A DNA stretch of 5,087 nt. It comes from a virus (lineage: Duplodnaviria > Heunggongvirae > Uroviricota > Caudoviricetes). A model generated the notes under the pieces. It made no database searches and was not told the origin of the DNA. It saw only the letters and a program-made list of their open reading frames with translations. The stretch is from the IMG/VR virus record IMGVR_UViG_3300000357_000189. One strand, given 5' to 3'. A program made the position numbers and the translations under genes. Shown here one piece after another: positions 1 to 5,087 of the stretch; the stretch's first letter is position 1, and each line of letters starts with the position of its first letter.

Positions 1-350
1 TGGTGGAGCAGAACAGGCACACGGGCTTATTGCTGGGGGAAGTGAAACAGGAGGCCAGCGTATCGCAGTATGGAAGATTAGCGCACTGGAGGCTTAATCA
101 CCCTCACTGGTCACTGCATGACATCCGGCGCACCTTTACAACCATGCTGAACGATTTAGGCGTTGATCCGCATGTCGTGGAGCAGCTTACAGGCCACCAG
201 ATGCCAGGAATGCAGCGAGTTTATAATCATTCCCGTTATCTGGATGCGAAACGCAATGCGCTGGATATGTGGACNNNNNNNNNNNNNNNNNNNNNNNNNN
301 NNNNNNNNNNNNNNNNNNNNNNNNNNNNNNNNNNNNNNNNNNNNNNNNNN
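1..350 (+). CDS. int: Tyrosine recombinase (integrase), C-terminal fragment; 5' end lies upstream of the window and the stop codon is hidden in N-run 275-406, so the end coordinate is approximate
   Basis: Frame-3 translation of 3-274 reads ...HDIRRTFTTMLNDLGVDPHVVEQLTGHQMPGMQRVYNHSRYLDAKRNALDMW. HDIRR (His-x-x-Arg), LTGH and the Tyr in RVYNHSRY match the box II catalytic motifs of tyrosine recombinases. The post-gap continuation in the ORF track (TRSQKKIIFF...) looks non-coding. Confidence 0.85.
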
Positions 351-446
351 NNNNNNNNNNNNNNNNNNNNNNNNNNNNNNNNNNNNNNNNNNNNNNNNNN
401 NNNNNNTACCCGTAGCCAGAAGAAAATAATTTTTTTCGTGTTTTTT

Positions 447-462
447 CAGTATGCGCATACTG
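447..462. promoter_or_regulatory. Perfect 16-bp palindrome CAGTATGCGCATACTG in the int-alpA intergenic region; candidate protein-binding site
   Basis: The sequence equals its own reverse complement and follows two T6 runs (431-436, 441-446). It has no loop, so it fits a dimeric DNA-binding site better than an RNA hairpin. Confidence 0.3.
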
Positions 463-484
463 GATATGCGAACAGATACAACGT

Positions 485-522
485 GCAACAATGAGCAACA
501 ATGTGGAACAACTACGAACAAG
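485..522 (+). repeat. Four direct repeats with an AACAA core at exact 10-bp phasing
   Basis: AACAA occurs at 487-491, 497-501, 507-511 and 517-521 within gcAACAAtg / agcAACAAtg / tggAACAAct / acgAACAAga. Helical-turn spacing is typical of arm-type or iteron-like recombinase/regulator binding sites. Confidence 0.35.
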
Positions 523-794
523 AGGCGAAAAAGCGTACGGATTTATAAGTAGCTGATTTTTAATGTGTTACTGGTTTTTTGTACACTAGCGAATCACTCT
601 TTAAAGAGCGAGAAAAAAGGCATGGAACAATATTTTATGCCTTTGTATTAACGTGAATTTAAAAGATTTTATTCTTACTGTTTCATTTTCTGTAAATCAT
701 ACATCCTCAGTATTTGCCATTCATCACTCTAGCGGGAACAATACGACACAATAAGACACCTGATGACTCTTTAAGAAACGAAAGGGGGGCAATA

Positions 795-983
795 GTGTTA
801 AGCACTGATCGGTTTATACGTGAAAAAGAATGCGAAAAACTAACCGGCCTTAGCCGTACGTGTCGCTACCGCCTGGAAAAGGCCGGACAATTCCCATCAC
901 GTCGTAAACTTGGCGGTCGTTCCGTTGGCTGGTCTTTATCCGAGGTTCTGGCCTGGAAGGATAGCTGCAAGGCAGTTCATTAA
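795..983 (+). CDS. alpA: AlpA-family (Vis/excisionase-like) small DNA-binding transcriptional regulator, 62 aa
   Basis: GTG start at 795 follows the Shine-Dalgarno AGGGGGG (784-789). Translation VLSTDRFIREKECEKLTGLSRTCRYRLEKAGQFPSRRKLGGRSVGWSLSEVLAWKDSCKAVH matches the AlpA pattern (HTH ...TGLSR.T.Y.L...FP...LG.RSVGW...E...W). The ORF-track start at ATG 714 has no RBS and would give an atypically long N-terminus. Position directly downstream of int is as in CP4-57/P4-like elements. Confidence 0.8.
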   Translation: MLSTDRFIREKECEKLTGLSRTCRYRLEKAGQFPSRRKLGGRSVGWSLSEVLAWKDSCKAVH

Positions 984-1040
984 TCACGCTGGCGGCACGC
1001 AGCCGCCACACATCAATCATCTGAACACAGAGCTATAACC

Positions 1041-1212
1041 ATGAAGATTGAATATACGCCANNNNNNNNNNNNNNNNNNNNNNNNNNNNNNNNNNNNNNN
1101 NNNNNNNNNNNNNNNNNNNNNNNNNNNNNNNNNNNNNNNNNNNNNNNNNNNNNNNNNNNCGTTCGCCCTGGTGAAACTGAAAAACAACAAAATTGGGGTT
1201 TTTCAGGTATAA
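1041..1212 (+). CDS. Possible small hypothetical ORF (about 56 aa) spanning N-run 1062-1159; low confidence
   Basis: ATG at 1041 (MKIEYTP...) runs into the gap. After the gap a different frame reads ...[16 protein letters not shown] with stop TAA 1210-1212, immediately before the hairpin at 1218-1238. The SD is weak (GAG at 1030-1032). Continuity depends on a frame change across the N-run, which is seen at other gaps in this window. Confidence 0.2.
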
Positions 1213-1244
1213 AAAAAGCGGCCCCGAACTGGAGCCGCCTTTCT
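1211..1244 (-). terminator. Intrinsic (rho-independent) terminator for the leftward transcript; possibly weakly bidirectional
   Basis: Stem GCGGC(c)CC / GG(a)GCCGC (1218-1225 with 1231-1238) around loop GAACT (1226-1230). The A7 run 1211-1217 gives a U7 tract directly after the hairpin on the minus strand. On the + strand the hairpin is followed by CTTTCT (1239-1244). It lies about 90 nt downstream of the minus-strand stop at 1334-1336. Confidence 0.55.
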
Positions 1245-1333
1245 GAACAGATAACCCGCTGCGCCGTTTGTGTGTGTGATCCCAAACATAAGCACGGGGA
1301 TGATAGCCGTTATCAGGCTGGTGGGCAATGCAA

Positions 1334-1507
1334 TCAGTCTGGTTCAGTTCGTTGCCATACCTGCAATGAGCGCTTTTCCCTGTACTCTTTAAGGAATTGC
1401 TCAAGGGCAAAAGCACATGGCGCGAATCTTTCTGATTCATGCTCTATCTTTCTGCGCCGTCTTTTCCGTGCCGGTGATAATGTTTTGGTCAATTCTTTAT
1501 CGGTCAT
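1334..1507 (-). CDS. Small basic hypothetical protein, 57 aa from ATG 1507 (alternative start ATG 1522 gives 62 aa)
   Basis: Minus-strand translation [63 protein letters not shown] (complement of 1515-1518) sits 7 nt upstream of ATG 1507; the upstream ATG 1522 has no SD. It lies 57 nt downstream of the RHH gene and upstream of the terminator. Family not recognised. Confidence 0.55.
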
Positions 1508-1564
1508 TGTGTTGTCCTGCATAGCAATGCGCCGTAATACCTTACACCACGGCGCTGATGGTGA

Positions 1565-1744
1565 TTACTCTGGTTCTTTGGCCTTGCGCCGCTGGCGATA
1601 TTCAACTTCTCGTTTTAATGCCGCAGTAACAAATTGCCCCGTACTTTCGCCAGGCATTTTTACCGCCTCAACATTGTTCATAACTTCATGCGGAACCCTT
1701 GCCGCAACGGTTTGTGATTTTGCGTTTACCGCTTTTGTCGCCAT
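1565..1744 (-). CDS. Ribbon-helix-helix (Arc/MetJ/CopG-like) putative transcriptional repressor, 59 aa
   Basis: Minus-strand ORF below the ORF-track size cutoff: ATG at 1744-1742, stop TAA at 1567-1565. Translation [59 protein letters not shown]. The layout beta-strand ([10 protein letters not shown]), helix A (MNNVEAVK), G-x-S/T turn (PGEST) and helix B ([14 protein letters not shown]) fits an RHH fold. SD GAGGGG sits 8 nt upstream of the ATG. It is transcribed divergently from the palindrome-bearing promoter region. Confidence 0.65.
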
Positions 1745-1773
1745 GTGGTGTACCCCTCATAAAAAACAAATGC

Positions 1774-1847
1774 AGTATGCAGGAAAAAAAATAAGTGTTC
1801 AACACTTGACGTGTTTAACACCTGGGTTTAAATTGGTGTTCAACACC
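1774..1847. promoter_or_regulatory. Divergent promoter/operator region with three GTGTT-N-AACAC palindromes overlapping sigma70-like promoter elements
   Basis: Palindromes at 1795-1805 (aaGTGTTcAACACtt), 1811-1821 (GTGTTtAACAC) and 1836-1846 (gGTGTTcAACACc). Rightward promoter: -35 TTGACG 1806-1811, 17-bp spacer, -10 TAAATT 1829-1834. Leftward promoter on the minus strand: -35 TTGAAC (complement of 1797-1802), 17-bp spacer, -10 CATACT (complement of 1774-1779). Operators overlap both -35 elements and the rightward +1 region. Confidence 0.55.
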
Positions 1848-1943
1848 TTGTTGGCGCAAGGTGCAGAAACGACGAAACCCGGCAGTGCGCTAACACTAAC
1901 CGGGCTTCTAACCACCAACGATAGCGAAAGTATCGAGGTAGCT

Positions 1944-2139
1944 ATGAGAAATCATACCACACACCCGCAAGGGCGGGACTCGCACAACCTGAATAAATAC
2001 ATNNNNNNNNNNNNNNNNNNNNGCACAACCGCGCGTGATTACCATTGAGGCCACCAGCGAACAGGAAGCACGCCAGCAATCTCCGGCTGGCTGCGTGATG
2101 GTATTTGCTGCCCGTATTCGTCAGGGGGTAGGCTTATGA
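1944..2139 (+). CDS. Hypothetical small protein, first gene of the rightward operon; spans N-run 2003-2022
   Basis: ATG 1944 follows SD GAGG (1935-1938): [19 protein letters not shown]... After the gap, another frame reads [38 protein letters not shown] with stop TGA 2137-2139 overlapping the next ATG (ATGA). The only frame open before the gap is the one containing ATG 1944. Confidence 0.45.
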
Positions 2140-2451
2140 GCCAGGAAATCACACTACAACAGGCAGCNNNNNNNNNNNNNNNNNNNNNNNNNNNNNNNNN
2201 NNNNNNNNNNNNNNNNNNNNNNNNNNNNNNNNNNNNNNNNNNNNNNNNNNNNNNNNNNNNNCCACCAAATCGAAGTTATTTGCGCACTGGCAGAGGATTA
2301 CCCTAGCATGATGACCGACAGCGAATCAGGGGCAATCATCGGCTTACTTAAACGCCTTAGCGGTGAGGTCTGCGTATTCCTGAGCGATGAACAGGAAAGA
2401 AGAACGCTTATTTCTAACGAAAAAAAATGCGGAGGGGTACATGTGCAATAA
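2136..2451 (+). CDS. Hypothetical protein (about 105 aa); spans N-run 2168-2261
   Basis: ATG 2136 follows SD GGGGG (2124-2128): [10 protein letters not shown]... After the gap: HQIEVICALAEDYPSMMTDSESGAIIGLLKRLSGEVCVFLSDEQERRTLISNEKKCGGVHVQ with stop TAA 2449-2451. It overlaps the next start by 11 nt. Confidence 0.5.
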
Positions 2452-2662
2452 AACCACACCGGACGCAGCCGCCGCCGCGCTCACTACGCTGATGCACGCG
2501 CTTATTGATATTTCTGTTATTGCTGACAGGGCGCATAAACACGCAGCCAGAGAATCAGAATGCATCTTCCATTTAGCATTTGTGCAGCTAAAAGCCGATC
2601 AGGCACTGGATAAGGCCGGAAAAATTATCATGGCTGATGTGCAGGAGGTGCACCATGCATAA
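2441..2662 (+). CDS. Hypothetical protein, 73 aa
   Basis: ATG 2441 follows SD GGAGGGG (2431-2437): MCNKTTPDAAAAALTTLMHALIDISVIADRAHKHAARESECIFHLAFVQLKADQALDKAGKIIMADVQEVHHA. The stop TAA 2660-2662 overlaps the next start (ATGCATAA). The ORF-track start at 2387 is less likely because it lacks an RBS. Confidence 0.6.
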   Translation: MCNKTTPDAAAAALTTLMHALIDISVIADRAHKHAARESECIFHLAFVQLKADQALDKAGKIIMADVQEVHHA

Positions 2663-3020
2663 TCTGTCAATTTCTGACCTTAACAGCATTCAGTTTGATG
2701 AGAAATTTACCGGGCAGTTGCTGGTCAATGTGGAGAACGGGCGCATAGTGCGTAATTATCACCTGCCGGATGGTGCAATTGCCGGAAGCGTTGAAGCATT
2801 GCTGGAACTGGCGGAACGTGCGCGACTGATTAAGCCGTCAACGAGCCATCACGATGATGATCTGCATTTTACCGGATGTATGGTGAGTCACTACGAAAAC
2901 GGCGTCGAGGTATCCTGTGAACGGCTGCGTGATGATTGCTGTTTCGGCACACTGCCGGAATTTATCGAGTTGCTGACCAGTTGCGGTTATCAGGTCATTC
3001 AGGGGGGTAAACATGCGTGA
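2655..3020 (+). CDS. Hypothetical protein, 121 aa, with a His/Cys-rich C-terminal half
   Basis: ATG 2655 follows SD GGAGGT (2644-2649): MHNLSISDLNSIQFDEKFTGQLLVNVENGRIVRNYHLPDGAIAGSVEALLELAERARLIKPSTSHHDDDLHFTGCMVSHYENGVEVSCERLRDDCCFGTLPEFIELLTSCGYQVIQGGKHA. Uninterrupted by N-runs. The stop TGA 3018-3020 overlaps the next ATG 3013. Confidence 0.65.
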   Translation: MHNLSISDLNSIQFDEKFTGQLLVNVENGRIVRNYHLPDGAIAGSVEALLELAERARLIKPSTSHHDDDLHFTGCMVSHYENGVEVSCERLRDDCCFGTLPEFIELLTSCGYQVIQGGKHA

Positions 3021-3331
3021 TGATCGTTTTAATTCCCTGAAACAGGAATTTTCCGGCGTTCCTGATGATGCGGCTGATGCGCTTTCGTCAATGCNNNNNN
3101 NNNNNNNNNNNNNNNNNNNNNNNNNNNNNNNNNNNNNNNNNNNNNNNNNNNNNNNNNNNNNNNNNNNNNNNNNNNNNNNNNNNNNNNATTAGAGCGGCTT
3201 TTTTCTTACTTTCCACGAGAGAATATAAATCAACGGGGCTTGATGTACTGAATATCGCCGCCGATTATGCGGAATATGTGGCAGAGGCGCGTTATAGAAG
3301 AAAATTTCCTGAGGATGTAAGCCATGCGTGA
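3013..3331 (+). CDS. Hypothetical protein (about 105 aa); spans N-run 3095-3187
   Basis: ATG 3013 follows SD AGGGGGG (3001-3007): MRDDRFNSLKQEFSGVPDDAADALSSM... After the gap: IRAAFFLLSTREYKSTGLDVLNIAADYAEYVAEARYRRKFPEDVSHA with stop TGA 3329-3331 overlapping the next ATG 3324. Two separate short genes cannot be excluded. Confidence 0.45.
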
Positions 3332-3645
3332 TATTTACCACGAAACAATAGACCGCGCATTTCTTGCACTTTCTCACAGTGAAAACATGCTGGAAATATT
3401 GCGNNNNNNNNNNNNNNNNNNNNNNNNNNNNNNNNNNNNNNNNNNNNNNNNNNNNNNNNNNNNNNNNNNNNNNNNNNNNNNNNNNNNNNNNNNNNNNGCT
3501 TGAAACACTTGGCGACAATGAACGCGACAAACAAAAATCAAGAATTGCCACGGCATTAATAACGCTTCTTGAGCCTGTAATAATGGAACTGCAAGAAATA
3601 GATCTATTGCACGACAGATATAAAGAACAGCACACCGGAGAATAA
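3324..3645 (+). CDS. Hypothetical protein (about 105 aa); spans N-run 3404-3497
   Basis: ATG 3324 follows SD GAGGA (3311-3315): MRDIYHETIDRAFLALSHSENMLEILR... After the gap: LETLGDNERDKQKSRIATALITLLEPVIMELQEIDLLHDRYKEQHTGE with stop TAA 3643-3645. The frame differs across the gap. Confidence 0.45.
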
Positions 3646-3650
3646 AAATA

Positions 3651-4035
3651 ATGAAACTTAAATATTCTGGCTTAACTGCCAGTGGCAACACTCACCCTAA
3701 ATTTACGCGCGGCGATATTTACCGCGACCAGTACGGCGGCACGGTAATGATTAAGGGCGTGGAAGAACGGCGCGTAACCTACCGCCGTGAAGGTTACGAA
3801 TATGATTGCGTGATGCCTGTTTATCAGTTCCGGCGTGATTTTTCTCTGGTACAGACCGCGCCGCATAACGTGTCCACCAGCAACGCCAGGGCACGGGCAA
3901 ACATCCAGAAGCTGAAAACCATGATTAACGGANNNNNNNNNNNNNNNNNNNNNNNNNNNNNNNNNNNNNNNNNNNNNNNNNNNNNNNNNNNNNNNNNNNN
4001 NNNNNNNNNNNNNNNNNNNNNNNNGTAAAAAATGA
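3651..4035 (+). CDS. Hypothetical protein (about 125 aa); 3' end within or just after N-run 3933-4024
   Basis: ATG 3651 follows SD GGAG (3637-3640): MKLKYSGLTASGNTHPKFTRGDIYRDQYGGTVMIKGVEERRVTYRREGYEYDCVMPVYQFRRDFSLVQTAPHNVSTSNARARANIQKLKTMING... After the gap, either TAA 4026-4028 or TGA 4033-4035 is the stop; the latter overlaps ATG 4032 as ATGA, like other junctions in this operon. Confidence 0.55.
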
Positions 4036-5087
4036 AACTGGCACCGAACGTAAAACAGCAGTCACGCGGCATAAAACACAAAGAAACAGAAGTCATTATT
4101 TTTGCGGGTAGTGATGCCTGGTCACACGCAAAACAATGGCAGGAACATGACGCGCGTATGGCCGGAGATAATGAGCCTCCTGTGTGGCTTGGGGAGCAGC
4201 AGTTATCCGAACTGGATAAGCTGCAAATTGTGCCNNNNNNNNNNNNNNNNNNNNNNNNNNNNNNNNNNNNNNNNNNNNNNNNNNNNNNNNNNNNNNNNNN
4301 NNNNNNNNNNNNNNNNNNNNNNNNNNNNNNNNCGCATATTCAGGGCCGGATATCTTGCGCCAGTAATGATAAAGGCGATTGGTCAGAAGCTGGCGGCAGC
4401 AGGCGTACAGGATGCAAATTTTTACCCTGATGGTATGCACGGTCAGAAGGTGGAGAACTGGCGCGAATATCTGGCCCGTGAGCGCCAGAATCTTTCTGAT
4501 GGTCTGGTCATTGAGCTTCCGGTAAAGCAAAAGGCGCAACTTTCGCAGATGGCGGANNNNNNNNNNNNNNNNNNNNNNNNNNNNNNNNNNNNNNNNNNNN
4601 NNNNNNNNNNNNNNNNNNNNNNNNNNNNNNNNNNNNNNNNNNNGCGCGCAGCTGCTTGCCGATCGCTTTGATGGCGTTTGCGTACATCCTGAAAGTGAAA
4701 TCGTTCACGTATGGCGCGGCGGGGTATGGTGTCCGGTCAGCACAATGGAACTTAGCCGCGAAATGGTGGCGATCTATTCAGAGCACAGGGCCACTTTCAG
4801 CAAGCGCGTAATCAATAACGCCGTGGAAGCGTTAAAAGTTATTGCCGAACCAATGGGCGAGCCGTCCGGCGATTTGTTGCCGTTCGNNNNNNNNNNNNNN
4901 NNNNNNNNNNNNNNNNNNNNNNNNNNNNNNNNNNNNNNNNNNNNNNNNNNNNNNNNNNNNNNNNNNNNNNNNATGGTGCGCTTGACCTGAAAACGGGGGA
5001 ATTTTCCCCGCACACGCCGGAGAACTGGATCACCACGCACAACGGCATTGAGTACACGCCACCAGCACCAGGGGAGAACATCCGCGA
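4032..5087 (+). CDS. Primase/helicase-type replication protein (P4-family primase / D5_N-like region), 3' end outside window; interrupted by N-runs 4235-4332, 4557-4643 and 4887-4972. The first segment (4032-4234) could be a separate upstream ORF.
   Basis: Coding-looking segments in successive frames: MKLAPNVKQQSRGIKHKETEVIIFAGSDAWSHAKQWQEHDARMAGDNEPPVWLGEQQLSELDKLQIV (4032-4234); ...YLAPVMIKAIGQKLAAAGVQDANFYPDGMHGQKVENWREYLARERQNLSDGLVIELPVKQKAQLSQMA (4333-4556); AQLLADRFDGVCVHPESEIVHVWRGGVWCPVSTMELSREMVAIYSEHRATFSKRVINNAVEALKVIAEPMGEPSGDLLPF (4646-4886); GALDLKTGEFSPHTPENWITTHNGIEYTPPAPGENIR (4975-5085). LADRF...W..W and G.LDL.TGE..PH.PE motifs are, from memory, characteristic of the D5_N / P4-type primase C-terminal region. 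Confidence 0.6.

Follow-up and report, generated by a model that had tools for sequence, protein, structure and literature searches.

Control region of an EcCICFT073-family phage-inducible chromosomal island in tqsA of Escherichia coli: a probable ribbon-helix-helix repressor and a likely antisense RNA

The virus record IMGVR_UViG_3300000357_000189 comprises 5,087 nucleotides (nt). This whole stretch, termed the window in the following, covers that half of an EcCICFT073-family Gram-negative phage-inducible chromosomal island (PICI) which serves integration, regulation, and early replication; the island is located in the tqsA gene. The window carries, in this order, the 3' end of an integrase gene, alpA, a leftward gene for a protein of 59 amino acids (aa), a divergent region of 199 bp, a rightward operon, and a D5/P4-type primase gene. 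When it was aligned to its best E. coli match, strain EcPF5 (NZ_CP054236.1), all unmasked stretches were 100% identical. The window is interrupted by ten N runs (275-406, 1062-1159, 2003-2022, 2168-2261, 3095-3187, 3404-3497, 3933-4024, 4235-4332, 4557-4643, and 4887-4972), all but one of which are far longer than the sequence they replace (e.g. 132 N versus 47 nt), and the 5087 nt of the window correspond to 4342 nt in EcPF5. The masking thus adds 745 nt to the window coordinates and puts open reading frames (ORFs) crossing a mask out of frame. NZ_CP054236.1 served as reference for the unmasked reading, and the island was examined within its 36-kb context in this genome (locus L001); mask-crossing ORFs were taken from there and their coordinates were converted back to the window. 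The genes and the control region are as follows:

1-429, plus strand: 3' end of the tyrosine integrase gene int, identical to L001 16001-16344, partly masked by the N run 275-406, stop codon at 427-429
795-983, plus strand: alpA, 62 aa, GTG start, Pfam Phage_AlpA (5.4e-17)
1565-1744, minus strand: gene of the YlcI/YnfO family (here ylcI), 59 aa, NCBIfam YlcI_YnfO_N (NF041551) with 59.7 bits at a cutoff of 30
1745-1943, no strand assigned: divergent control region of 199 bp between ylcI and the Icd-like gene
1944-2139, plus strand: Icd-like gene, 66 aa, opening the rightward operon, NF033153 with 69.9 bits, N run 2003-2022 inside
2136-2451, 2441-2662, 2655-3020, 3013-3331, and 3324-3645, plus strand: five small overlapping ORFs, coding sequences in RefSeq
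3651-4035, plus strand: rgdR (DUF4222), 99 aa, Pfam DUF4222 (1.6e-24), RGD at residues 20-22
4032-5087, plus strand: 5' part of the primase/replicase gene pri, full protein 584 aa with D5_N, DUF5906, and Pox_D5 domains

In EcPF5 an 11.4-kb island lies between the split halves of tqsA, and the window covers its left part. Compared with the uninterrupted tqsA of E. coli K-12, homology ends on the left at L001 14940 and begins again on the right at 26343, and relative to the empty K-12 site a 9-bp attachment-site (att) duplication, ATAACAGCA, is present at both island ends inside the tqsA coding sequence. The two tqsA pieces (L001 14034-14939 and 26336-26479; split after about 48 codons) are both annotated as pseudogenes in RefSeq. 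The gene encodes the exporter of autoinducer-2, and since both pieces are pseudogenes, carriers of the island probably lack TqsA. Downstream of the primase gene follow a small ORF, a gene for a single-stranded DNA-binding protein, a major capsid gene of the lambda E family, a decoration gene of the lambda D family, and three more ORFs. One of these last three encodes a helix-turn-helix (HTH) protein of 144 aa, RppA, which matches the structure of RppC (6hlk, 4.5e-31). Annotation and domain searches of the island ORFs revealed no tail, lysis, holin, portal, or terL genes.

Gene content and order are those described for Gram-negative PICIs (Fillol-Salom 2018): int, alpA, and pri are organized as in EcCICFT073, the capsid E-like and decoration D-like genes are the only structural genes, and the size of about 12-15 kb with a specific att site that is typical of these islands corresponds here to 11.4 kb between the 9-bp repeats. 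The feature of Rpp-type cos PICIs (Fillol-Salom 2019) is represented by the 144-aa protein, 98.6% identical to RppA of CFT073 and predicted to bind the small terminase TerS. Identity to the EcCICFT073 proteins is 99.5% for Pri, 98.6% for RppA, 98.5% for the Icd-like protein, 97% for the decoration protein, 95% for RgdR (C1493), 94.6% for the capsid protein, 93.5% for AlpA, and 91% for Int, and gene order and size (11.4 kb) are the same. EcCICFT073 differs in its att site, which lies at ycfD-phoQ and not in tqsA, in a YlcI protein that is 59% identical to that of EcPF5, and in its operator type; the EcPF5 island in addition has a truncated post-alpA gene, one extra small ORF, and no perC. For this close relative only, induction, replication, and packaging by a helper phage have been demonstrated experimentally: a lambdoid helper turns on alpA, AlpA activates its own promoter (PMC6092414), excision and replication depend on int and pri, and RppA retargets the helper TerS to the island cos site. 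The element itself is already catalogued at this very site and is not new, since EcCI042 and EcCIK1516 (11.4 kb) are listed at tqsA with the same att core (Fillol-Salom 2018, Table S1, PMC6092414); they thus share core and target with the EcPF5 island, and the flanks seen in the att alignments by Williams and co-workers are the same (PMC10111431).

An initial annotation of the window had recognized the layout of int, alpA, leftward gene, switch, operon, and primase as that of a phage satellite, and had placed it with P4 and the CP4-type cryptic prophages. The layout is real, each call being supported by significant matches, and the satellite nature is borne out by the att duplication and by the capsid and packaging genes (capsid E-like, decoration D-like, RppA) in the flanks, where no full phage structural module is present. 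The kinship with P4 did not hold. A P4-like satellite or CP4-type prophage would redirect capsids by Sid/Psu/Delta, owe its immunity to CI RNA, and use helpers of the P2 type. AlpA (Phage_AlpA, 5e-17) and a primase 40% identical to the P4 alpha protein across aa 141-579 are indeed present, as had been predicted, and the authors of SatelliteFinder describe int, alpA, and primase as common to P4-like elements and PICIs, but the overlap with P4-like satellites is limited to int, alpA, and the helicase part of the primase. The island ORFs include no homologues of sid, psu, delta, or epsilon, and an Rfam search of a 1.1-kb stretch for P4 CI, C4, and isrK RNAs gave no match even at E=10; lambda-type capsid E/D homologues and RppA are present instead, together with the 91-99% identity to EcCICFT073, and the insertion is not at a tRNA or tmRNA gene. 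P4-like membership is refuted by this gene content, and the probability left to it is minute. The att site had been expected just upstream of the window in a tRNA or tmRNA gene; it does lie upstream, about 1.06 kb to the left, but within the tqsA coding sequence, and a tRNA/tmRNA scan of the window found none. Capsid-forming PICIs (cf-PICIs) were likewise rejected as a class for the 11.4-kb island because it has no terL, portal, protease, or head-tail connector genes.

The two head genes, of the lambda E and D families, could also be those of a decayed lambdoid prophage that has retained little besides int, a regulator, and a primase gene, and related islands such as O-island 51 were for a long time annotated as defective prophages. 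However, the att duplication is exact, 84 genomes share this compact 11-kb architecture at an identity of at least 99% and about 1800 share it more loosely, a megablast search of the window against 50,697 phage records gave no match, and the island is nearly identical to an element that is induced, replicated, and packaged by helpers. A prophage remnant is thus hardly credible. The EcPF5 element is hence treated in the following as a PICI of the EcCICFT073 family, and the question of how it is kept silent leads to the divergent region, which contains the following sites:

1774-1802, minus strand: candidate ylcI promoter (-35 TTGAAC at 1802-1797, 17-nt spacer, putative -10 CATACT at 1779-1774)
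1795-1805, no strand: operator O1, GTGTTCAACAC, overlapping the -35 of the candidate ylcI promoter and directly preceding the -35 of P_R
1806-1834, plus strand: P_R, sigma70-like promoter (TTGACG-17-TAAATT) of the operon from the Icd-like gene to the primase gene
1811-1821, no strand: operator O2, GTGTTTAACAC, between -35 and -10 of P_R
1836-1846, no strand: operator O3, GTGTTCAACAC, over the predicted P_R start site

The leftward YlcI/YnfO-family protein is probably a ribbon-helix-helix (RHH) repressor and the immunity determinant of the island. The divergent region contains three copies of the palindrome GTGTT(C/T)AACAC, whose general form is GTG-N5-CAC. These sites were compared in 34 loci, ten E. 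coli variants and 24 usable loci from other Enterobacterales, the genera including, besides E. coli, Edwardsiella, Pectobacterium, Kosakonia, Yokenella, Serratia, Xenorhabdus, Proteus, and Klebsiella. Nearly all of these loci have alpA, and mostly also int, on one side, and about half have a recognizable Icd-like or primase gene within the 3-kb flank on the other. Distances from the ylcI start codon are conserved, with O1 at 21 or 50, O2 at 66, and O3 at 88-91; the -35 of P_R is found at a fixed 61 nt in nearly all loci, and a conserved AGTATA(C) block occupies the position of the candidate ylcI promoter in at least 30. The outer GTG...CAC and the protein residues K9, S10, and R16 are conserved, and the central 5 bp vary together with residues 11-15 of the predicted N-terminal strand, as the following pairs illustrate:

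SQT[VLI]AAR: operator GTGTTCAACAC; E. coli, Edwardsiella, Pectobacterium, Kosakonia
SQ[AS]LK[AS]R: operator GTGGGCCACAC; E. coli CFT073, Dryocola, Yokenella
S[KR]KLEAR: operator GTGGCTGACAC; E. coli, Pectobacterium, many Xenorhabdus
SKR[IF]D[AV]R: operator GTGTCCGACAC
SQKLQ[AT]R: operator GTGGAGTCCAC
SQKMSAR: operator (A/C/G)TGGGTGCCAG

The mean operator distance was 0.69 for locus pairs with at most one difference in residues 9-16 (n=74) and 4.07 for those with at least three (n=441). It remained low (0.86, n=28 pairs) when the strand residues were the same and the rest of the protein had diverged, and was high (3.7, n=18 pairs) when the strand residues differed and the rest was similar. Recognition of the operators through the N-terminal strand, as is characteristic of RHH proteins, is thus suggested by comparison of the 34 loci. 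In size and in its predicted strand-helix-turn(G-x-S)-helix pattern, YlcI resembles Arc and Mnt (immI of P22), CopG, omega, and the RHH antitoxins, which also bind short repeated or palindromic operators overlapping promoters and regulate their own synthesis, as would be the case for YlcI. Sequence searches for an RHH family or a structurally solved relative of YlcI gave no significant match, only spurious hits to DNA polymerase beta and Med10. RgdR had also been considered as the product of the leftward gene, but was rejected, as it is encoded by the 99-aa DUF4222 ORF just before the primase gene. A longer YlcI-like form of 100-101 aa occurs in E. coli Nissle, PS10-3, M505, and 382634_2f (L006, L007, L008, and L010); in it, some 40 residues of helical appearance are inserted ahead of the basic C-terminal tail, and its operators are less regular.

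The GTG-N5-CAC sites might instead be bound by AlpA, the published master regulator, or by the Icd-like protein, which matches two families labelled 'transcriptional repressor' (phrog_6196 and phrog_1743), and YlcI would then have another role. This is very improbable, as the operator cores co-vary with the YlcI strand residues and not with either of the two other proteins. Between EcPF5 and CFT073, AlpA (93.5%) and the Icd-like protein (98.5%) are nearly constant, whereas YlcI is only 59% identical, its strand residues being SQTVAAR in EcPF5 and SQALKAR in CFT073, and the operators change from GTGTTCAACAC to GTGGGCCACAC at the same positions; between EcPF5 and Edwardsiella, AlpA (31%) and the Icd-like protein (54%) have diverged, whereas YlcI residues 1-57 are identical and the operators are the same.

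A YlcI-type repressor could also be the antitoxin of an autoregulated addiction pair without control of the island operon, the toxin then being specified by orf62, the small ORF downstream in the same direction:

1334-1522, minus strand: orf62, small basic ORF downstream of ylcI, phrog_21027 (1.6e-15), 100% identical to the EcCICFT073 copy
1212-1244, minus strand: GC-rich hairpin plus U7, the intrinsic terminator at which the leftward ylcI-orf62 transcript would end

Homologues of orf62 are restricted to some E. coli loci; none follows ylcI in the 24 loci outside E. coli, 17 of which have no ORF at all at this position. For this reason a toxin-antitoxin pair is unlikely, and its probability is further lowered by the arrangement of the operators, two of three lying on the rightward and not on the leftward promoter in a conserved geometry. 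The terminator was confirmed by folding, the promoter/terminator scan having missed it; it is stable on the minus strand (-24.5 kcal/mol, z -3.6) and poor for rightward transcription from alpA on the plus strand (-15.4, z -1.05).

The preferred function of YlcI as repressor of the operon had been anticipated in outline by the initial annotation, which described a leftward RHH repressor facing a rightward operon, reminiscent of the stl/str arrangement of Staphylococcus aureus pathogenicity islands (SaPIs), in what would be an unusual combination with AlpA and the primase. An RHH repressor in this orientation is plausible from the comparisons above. The combination, however, is not unusual: the current RefSeq annotation of the prototype EcCICFT073 shows a leftward YlcI/YnfO gene and orf57, and the leftward gene with its regulatory cassette is present in about one third of complete E. 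coli genomes. The likeness to SaPIs is partial. As with Stl and Str, a small leftward repressor gene opposes a rightward replication operon, with operators in the divergent region and repressor sequences that are hypervariable between elements. In contrast, YlcI is RHH-like and not an HTH protein, and int, which is co-transcribed with the repressor gene in SaPIs, here runs rightward with alpA and converges on ylcI; membership in the Stl/Str module class was rejected for these two differences. The triggers differ as well, a helper antirepressor in SaPIs and AlpA in the published model of Gram-negative PICIs, for which no helper antirepressor is known. A helper-encoded YlcI/YnfO homologue poisoning the repressor by heterodimer formation was considered and dropped; a tblastn search of phage records for YlcI/YnfO found no homologue apart from one cf-PICI-like entry of 16.5 kb (see below).

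Besides the operators, the divergent region contains a second conserved element, which reaches to the start of the Icd-like gene:

1864-1944, minus strand: predicted two-hairpin cis-antisense RNA, about 80 nt long, with complementarity to the Icd-like gene in its leader, Shine-Dalgarno sequence, and start codon
1951-1959, minus strand: candidate extended -10 element TGGTATGAT for the antisense RNA, whose 5' end follows 7 nt downstream

Rfam yielded one weak hit within the island, SymR (RF01809), located on the minus strand and with an end that coincides exactly with the start codon of the Icd-like gene. Folding of the minus strand gave -37.7 kcal/mol (z -4.2; reached by none of 200 shuffles), and a z of -0.7 was obtained for the plus strand. 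Consensus folding likewise favored the minus strand, with -39.4 versus -18.0 kcal/mol for nine E. coli sequences and -25.2 versus -10.1 for 22 diverse sequences, and the predicted pairs contained 69 G-U cells, which are mismatches on the plus strand, versus two A-C cells. In an alignment of 21 sequences (A7), 98.2% of the cells were paired, 11 of 21 pairs showed compensatory changes, and 56 cells were G-U; none of 500 shuffles reached these values, and shifted pairings did not exceed 48%. A covariance model built from these sequences (R1) scored 92 bits at 1864-1944 on the minus strand of the window, also matched EcCICFT073, in which the predicted RNA lies at NC_004431.1 1380771-1380852, and retrieved the genuine symR of K-12, in agreement with the annotation of that gene in both coordinates and strand (30.6 bits, E ~1e-4). 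A TAnnnT hexamer lies at the same distance from the RNA in 22 of 22 distinct sequences. This conserved covarying structure is likely a cis-antisense RNA which masks the Shine-Dalgarno sequence and the AUG of the Icd-like gene.

Action of the same structure in the sense leader of the mRNA, by processing or translational control and without any antisense RNA, is less easily dismissed: the region is certainly transcribed as the 5' untranslated region of the operon if P_R is active, and hairpin stems can form on both strands. We nevertheless regard it as rather unlikely, because consensus folding yields -25 to -39 kcal/mol for the minus strand and just -10 to -18 for the plus strand, the z-scores of the single sequence differ in the same way, the 69 G-U cells would turn into A-C mismatches with only two of the opposite kind, and reciprocal matches connect the structure to SymR, a proven antisense RNA, in the same register to the start codon. 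The likely antisense RNA resembles the SymR-SymE type I toxin-antitoxin system of E. coli K-12 in being a two-hairpin RNA of about 80 nt with its 5' end at the target start codon, the reciprocal covariance-model matches of 33 and 30.6 bits both being below curated thresholds. The target differs, as the Icd-like protein is unrelated to SymE, which was rejected as a relative for lack of any similarity. The initial annotation had contrasted the island with the RNA-based immunity of P4. This stands as far as the P4 CI and C4 types are concerned, but not for RNA control as such, which is likely present over the Icd-like start. With the CI RNA of P4 and the C4 RNA of P1 and P7, which control icd-ant, the island would share RNA-level control of an Icd-type first gene in an immunity region; those RNAs, however, arise by cleavage of the sense leader and have nearby sites as targets in trans, whereas the PICI structure is on the opposite strand and has no C4/isrK match. 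Other Gram-negative PICIs carry RNAs of the C4/isrK type (PMC10111431).

Taken together, these elements suggest a two-layered silencing of the island. The YlcI-like repressor would bind the three GTG-N5-CAC operators; occupancy of O2 and O3 would block P_R, which drives the operon from the Icd-like gene via rgdR to the primase gene, and O1, covering the promoter of the repressor gene itself, would provide autoregulation. As residues 11-15 of the N-terminal strand would read the central 5 bp, each island would have its own immunity type. The antisense RNA would start just inside the Icd-like gene and pair with its ribosome-binding site and start codon, thereby keeping this probably toxic first gene of the operon untranslated, as SymR does with symE. 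The most speculative step concerns the switch: rightward transcription driven by AlpA would meet no good terminator and run antisense through orf62 and ylcI, and its collision with ylcI transcription might lower the repressor level and so open P_R. That an EcCICFT073-family PICI silenced by an RHH repressor and an antisense RNA and switched by AlpA is at hand appears probable to us on the whole. The wider proposal is put forward tentatively, as a possibility we rate slightly below its converse: that YlcI/YnfO would be the master repressor so far missing from enterobacterial PICIs and cf-PICIs, with a modular strand code, cassette exchange, a SymR-like second lock, and AlpA overriding the lock, for example by convergent transcription, rather than acting as a simple activator.

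Several points speak against such a repressor-based control. The published model needs AlpA alone, and overexpression of AlpA suffices to induce EcCICFT073 (PMC6092414), from which it follows that a repressor, if present, must be overridden by AlpA. YlcI, its operators, and the RNA are known from sequence comparison only. The co-variation of operators and protein is partly confounded by co-inheritance, since the Mantel correlation with the operators is also positive for the rest of YlcI (r 0.41, versus 0.48 for the strand residues). The SymR match of 33.3 bits is below the Rfam gathering score of 61 bits, so that the RNA is not a certified member of this family, and its putative promoter is represented by a -10-like element that lies in coding sequence as well.

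In the founding paper on Gram-negative PICIs, whether a global repressor exists was called unclear and the elements were described as transcribed unidirectionally. Later open-access papers place YlcI/YnfO and Icd simply among the accessory genes; in a survey of 2026, 'YlcI/YnfO family protein' and 'Icd' appear in this role for cf-PICIs. In the open-access literature we found no function assigned to YlcI/YnfO in satellites and no repressor or antisense RNA described at this position, although a prior description elsewhere is possible; the regulatory layer of repressor, operators, and antisense RNA has apparently gone unrecognized so far. The element itself is an ordinary one, a PICI already catalogued, with RgdR as virulence regulator and with tqsA disrupted by its insertion, and its regulatory cassette occurs in many Enterobacterales. 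If the proposed control is correct, it would offer a testable answer to how very common satellites are silenced and then woken by helpers, a foundation for assigning 'immunity types' to co-resident satellites, and compact orthogonal repressor/operator pairs for engineering PICI-based delivery vehicles.

The cassette nature of the control unit is suggested by a locus of Edwardsiella hoshinae (NZ_BAUC01000010.1; L012), in which the DNA of the ylcI-operator-RNA unit matches window positions 1575-1997 at 93% identity, whereas the neighboring AlpA, Icd-like, and Pri proteins are 31-54% identical to those of E. coli. From this difference it appears that the control cassette has been exchanged between satellites of different genera, and the unit may thus move as a whole. 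This contig was rejected as source of the window, as the match is limited to the stated positions. The cf-PICI-like phage entry mentioned above is 'Escherichia phage vB_KppS-Ant' (LR881103.1; L044), an induced prophage of 16.5 kb with the content of a cf-PICI (terS, terL, portal, capsid, connector, int, and primase genes). It contains a weak, unannotated leftward YlcI-like ORF (8988-9185, minus strand; 39% identity, E 5e-4) and a match to the antisense RNA model (9290-9370, minus strand; 80 bits); the depositors annotated a plus-strand ORF of 324 aa across this region.

Of the operon genes behind the Icd-like gene, the five small ORFs matched no Pfam family, and their PHROG matches are all of unknown function. 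RgdR (ECs1581/C1493) is an experimentally studied regulator of type III secretion, specified by the LEE (locus of enterocyte effacement), and of motility (PMC3378721), and is carried by 'all analysed E. coli PICIs'. The EcPF5 protein has the motif R20-G21-D22 and A10 as in the uropathogenic variant C1493, so that the island should be able to modulate LEE and motility phenotypes.

The remaining features of the window lie between int and the leftward transcript:

471-522, plus strand: five to six (R)AACAA(C) repeats directly after the int stop codon, in exact 10-bp phasing
714-742, plus strand: weak sigma70-like promoter candidate upstream of alpA (TTGCCA-17-AACAAT), a consensus match only
1041-1212 (L001 16956-17150), plus strand: truncated remnant of the variable post-alpA gene, 'Icd-like, incomplete' in RefSeq

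The complete integrase of EcPF5 has 409 aa and contains Phage_integrase (1e-15) and Arm-DNA-bind_3 (1e-18) domains. The ACAA of the repeat array recurs at positions 478, 488, 498, 508, and 518; the 10-bp phasing is also found in EcCICFT073 and is absent from the distant loci examined. The array may represent binding sites for AlpA or for another, accessory factor. Two further (R)AACAA(C) repeats are located at the putative alpA promoter (738-751). The post-alpA gene has suffered an internal deletion relative to EcCICFT073, homology ending at L001 17004 and restarting at 17150. The same position holds an intact Icd-like or BRO-N gene in other E. coli strains, in which the match to the window spans 4799 bp, and corresponds to what PMC10111431 terms the 'dynamic Bro zone'. 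A 23-bp direct repeat, CGGTGTAGTCACTGGTGTAGTCA, which itself consists of two copies of GGTGTAGTCA(C), is present just inside each island end (L001 15067-15089 and 26246-26268), and the two repeats are probably arm-type integrase sites. Just after pri, at L001 21369-21450, lies a long imperfect inverted repeat with CTACC-type iterons, which gave a chance-level match to the mir-135 model; a PICI replication origin has been reported downstream of pri, where this repeat is located (PMC6092414).

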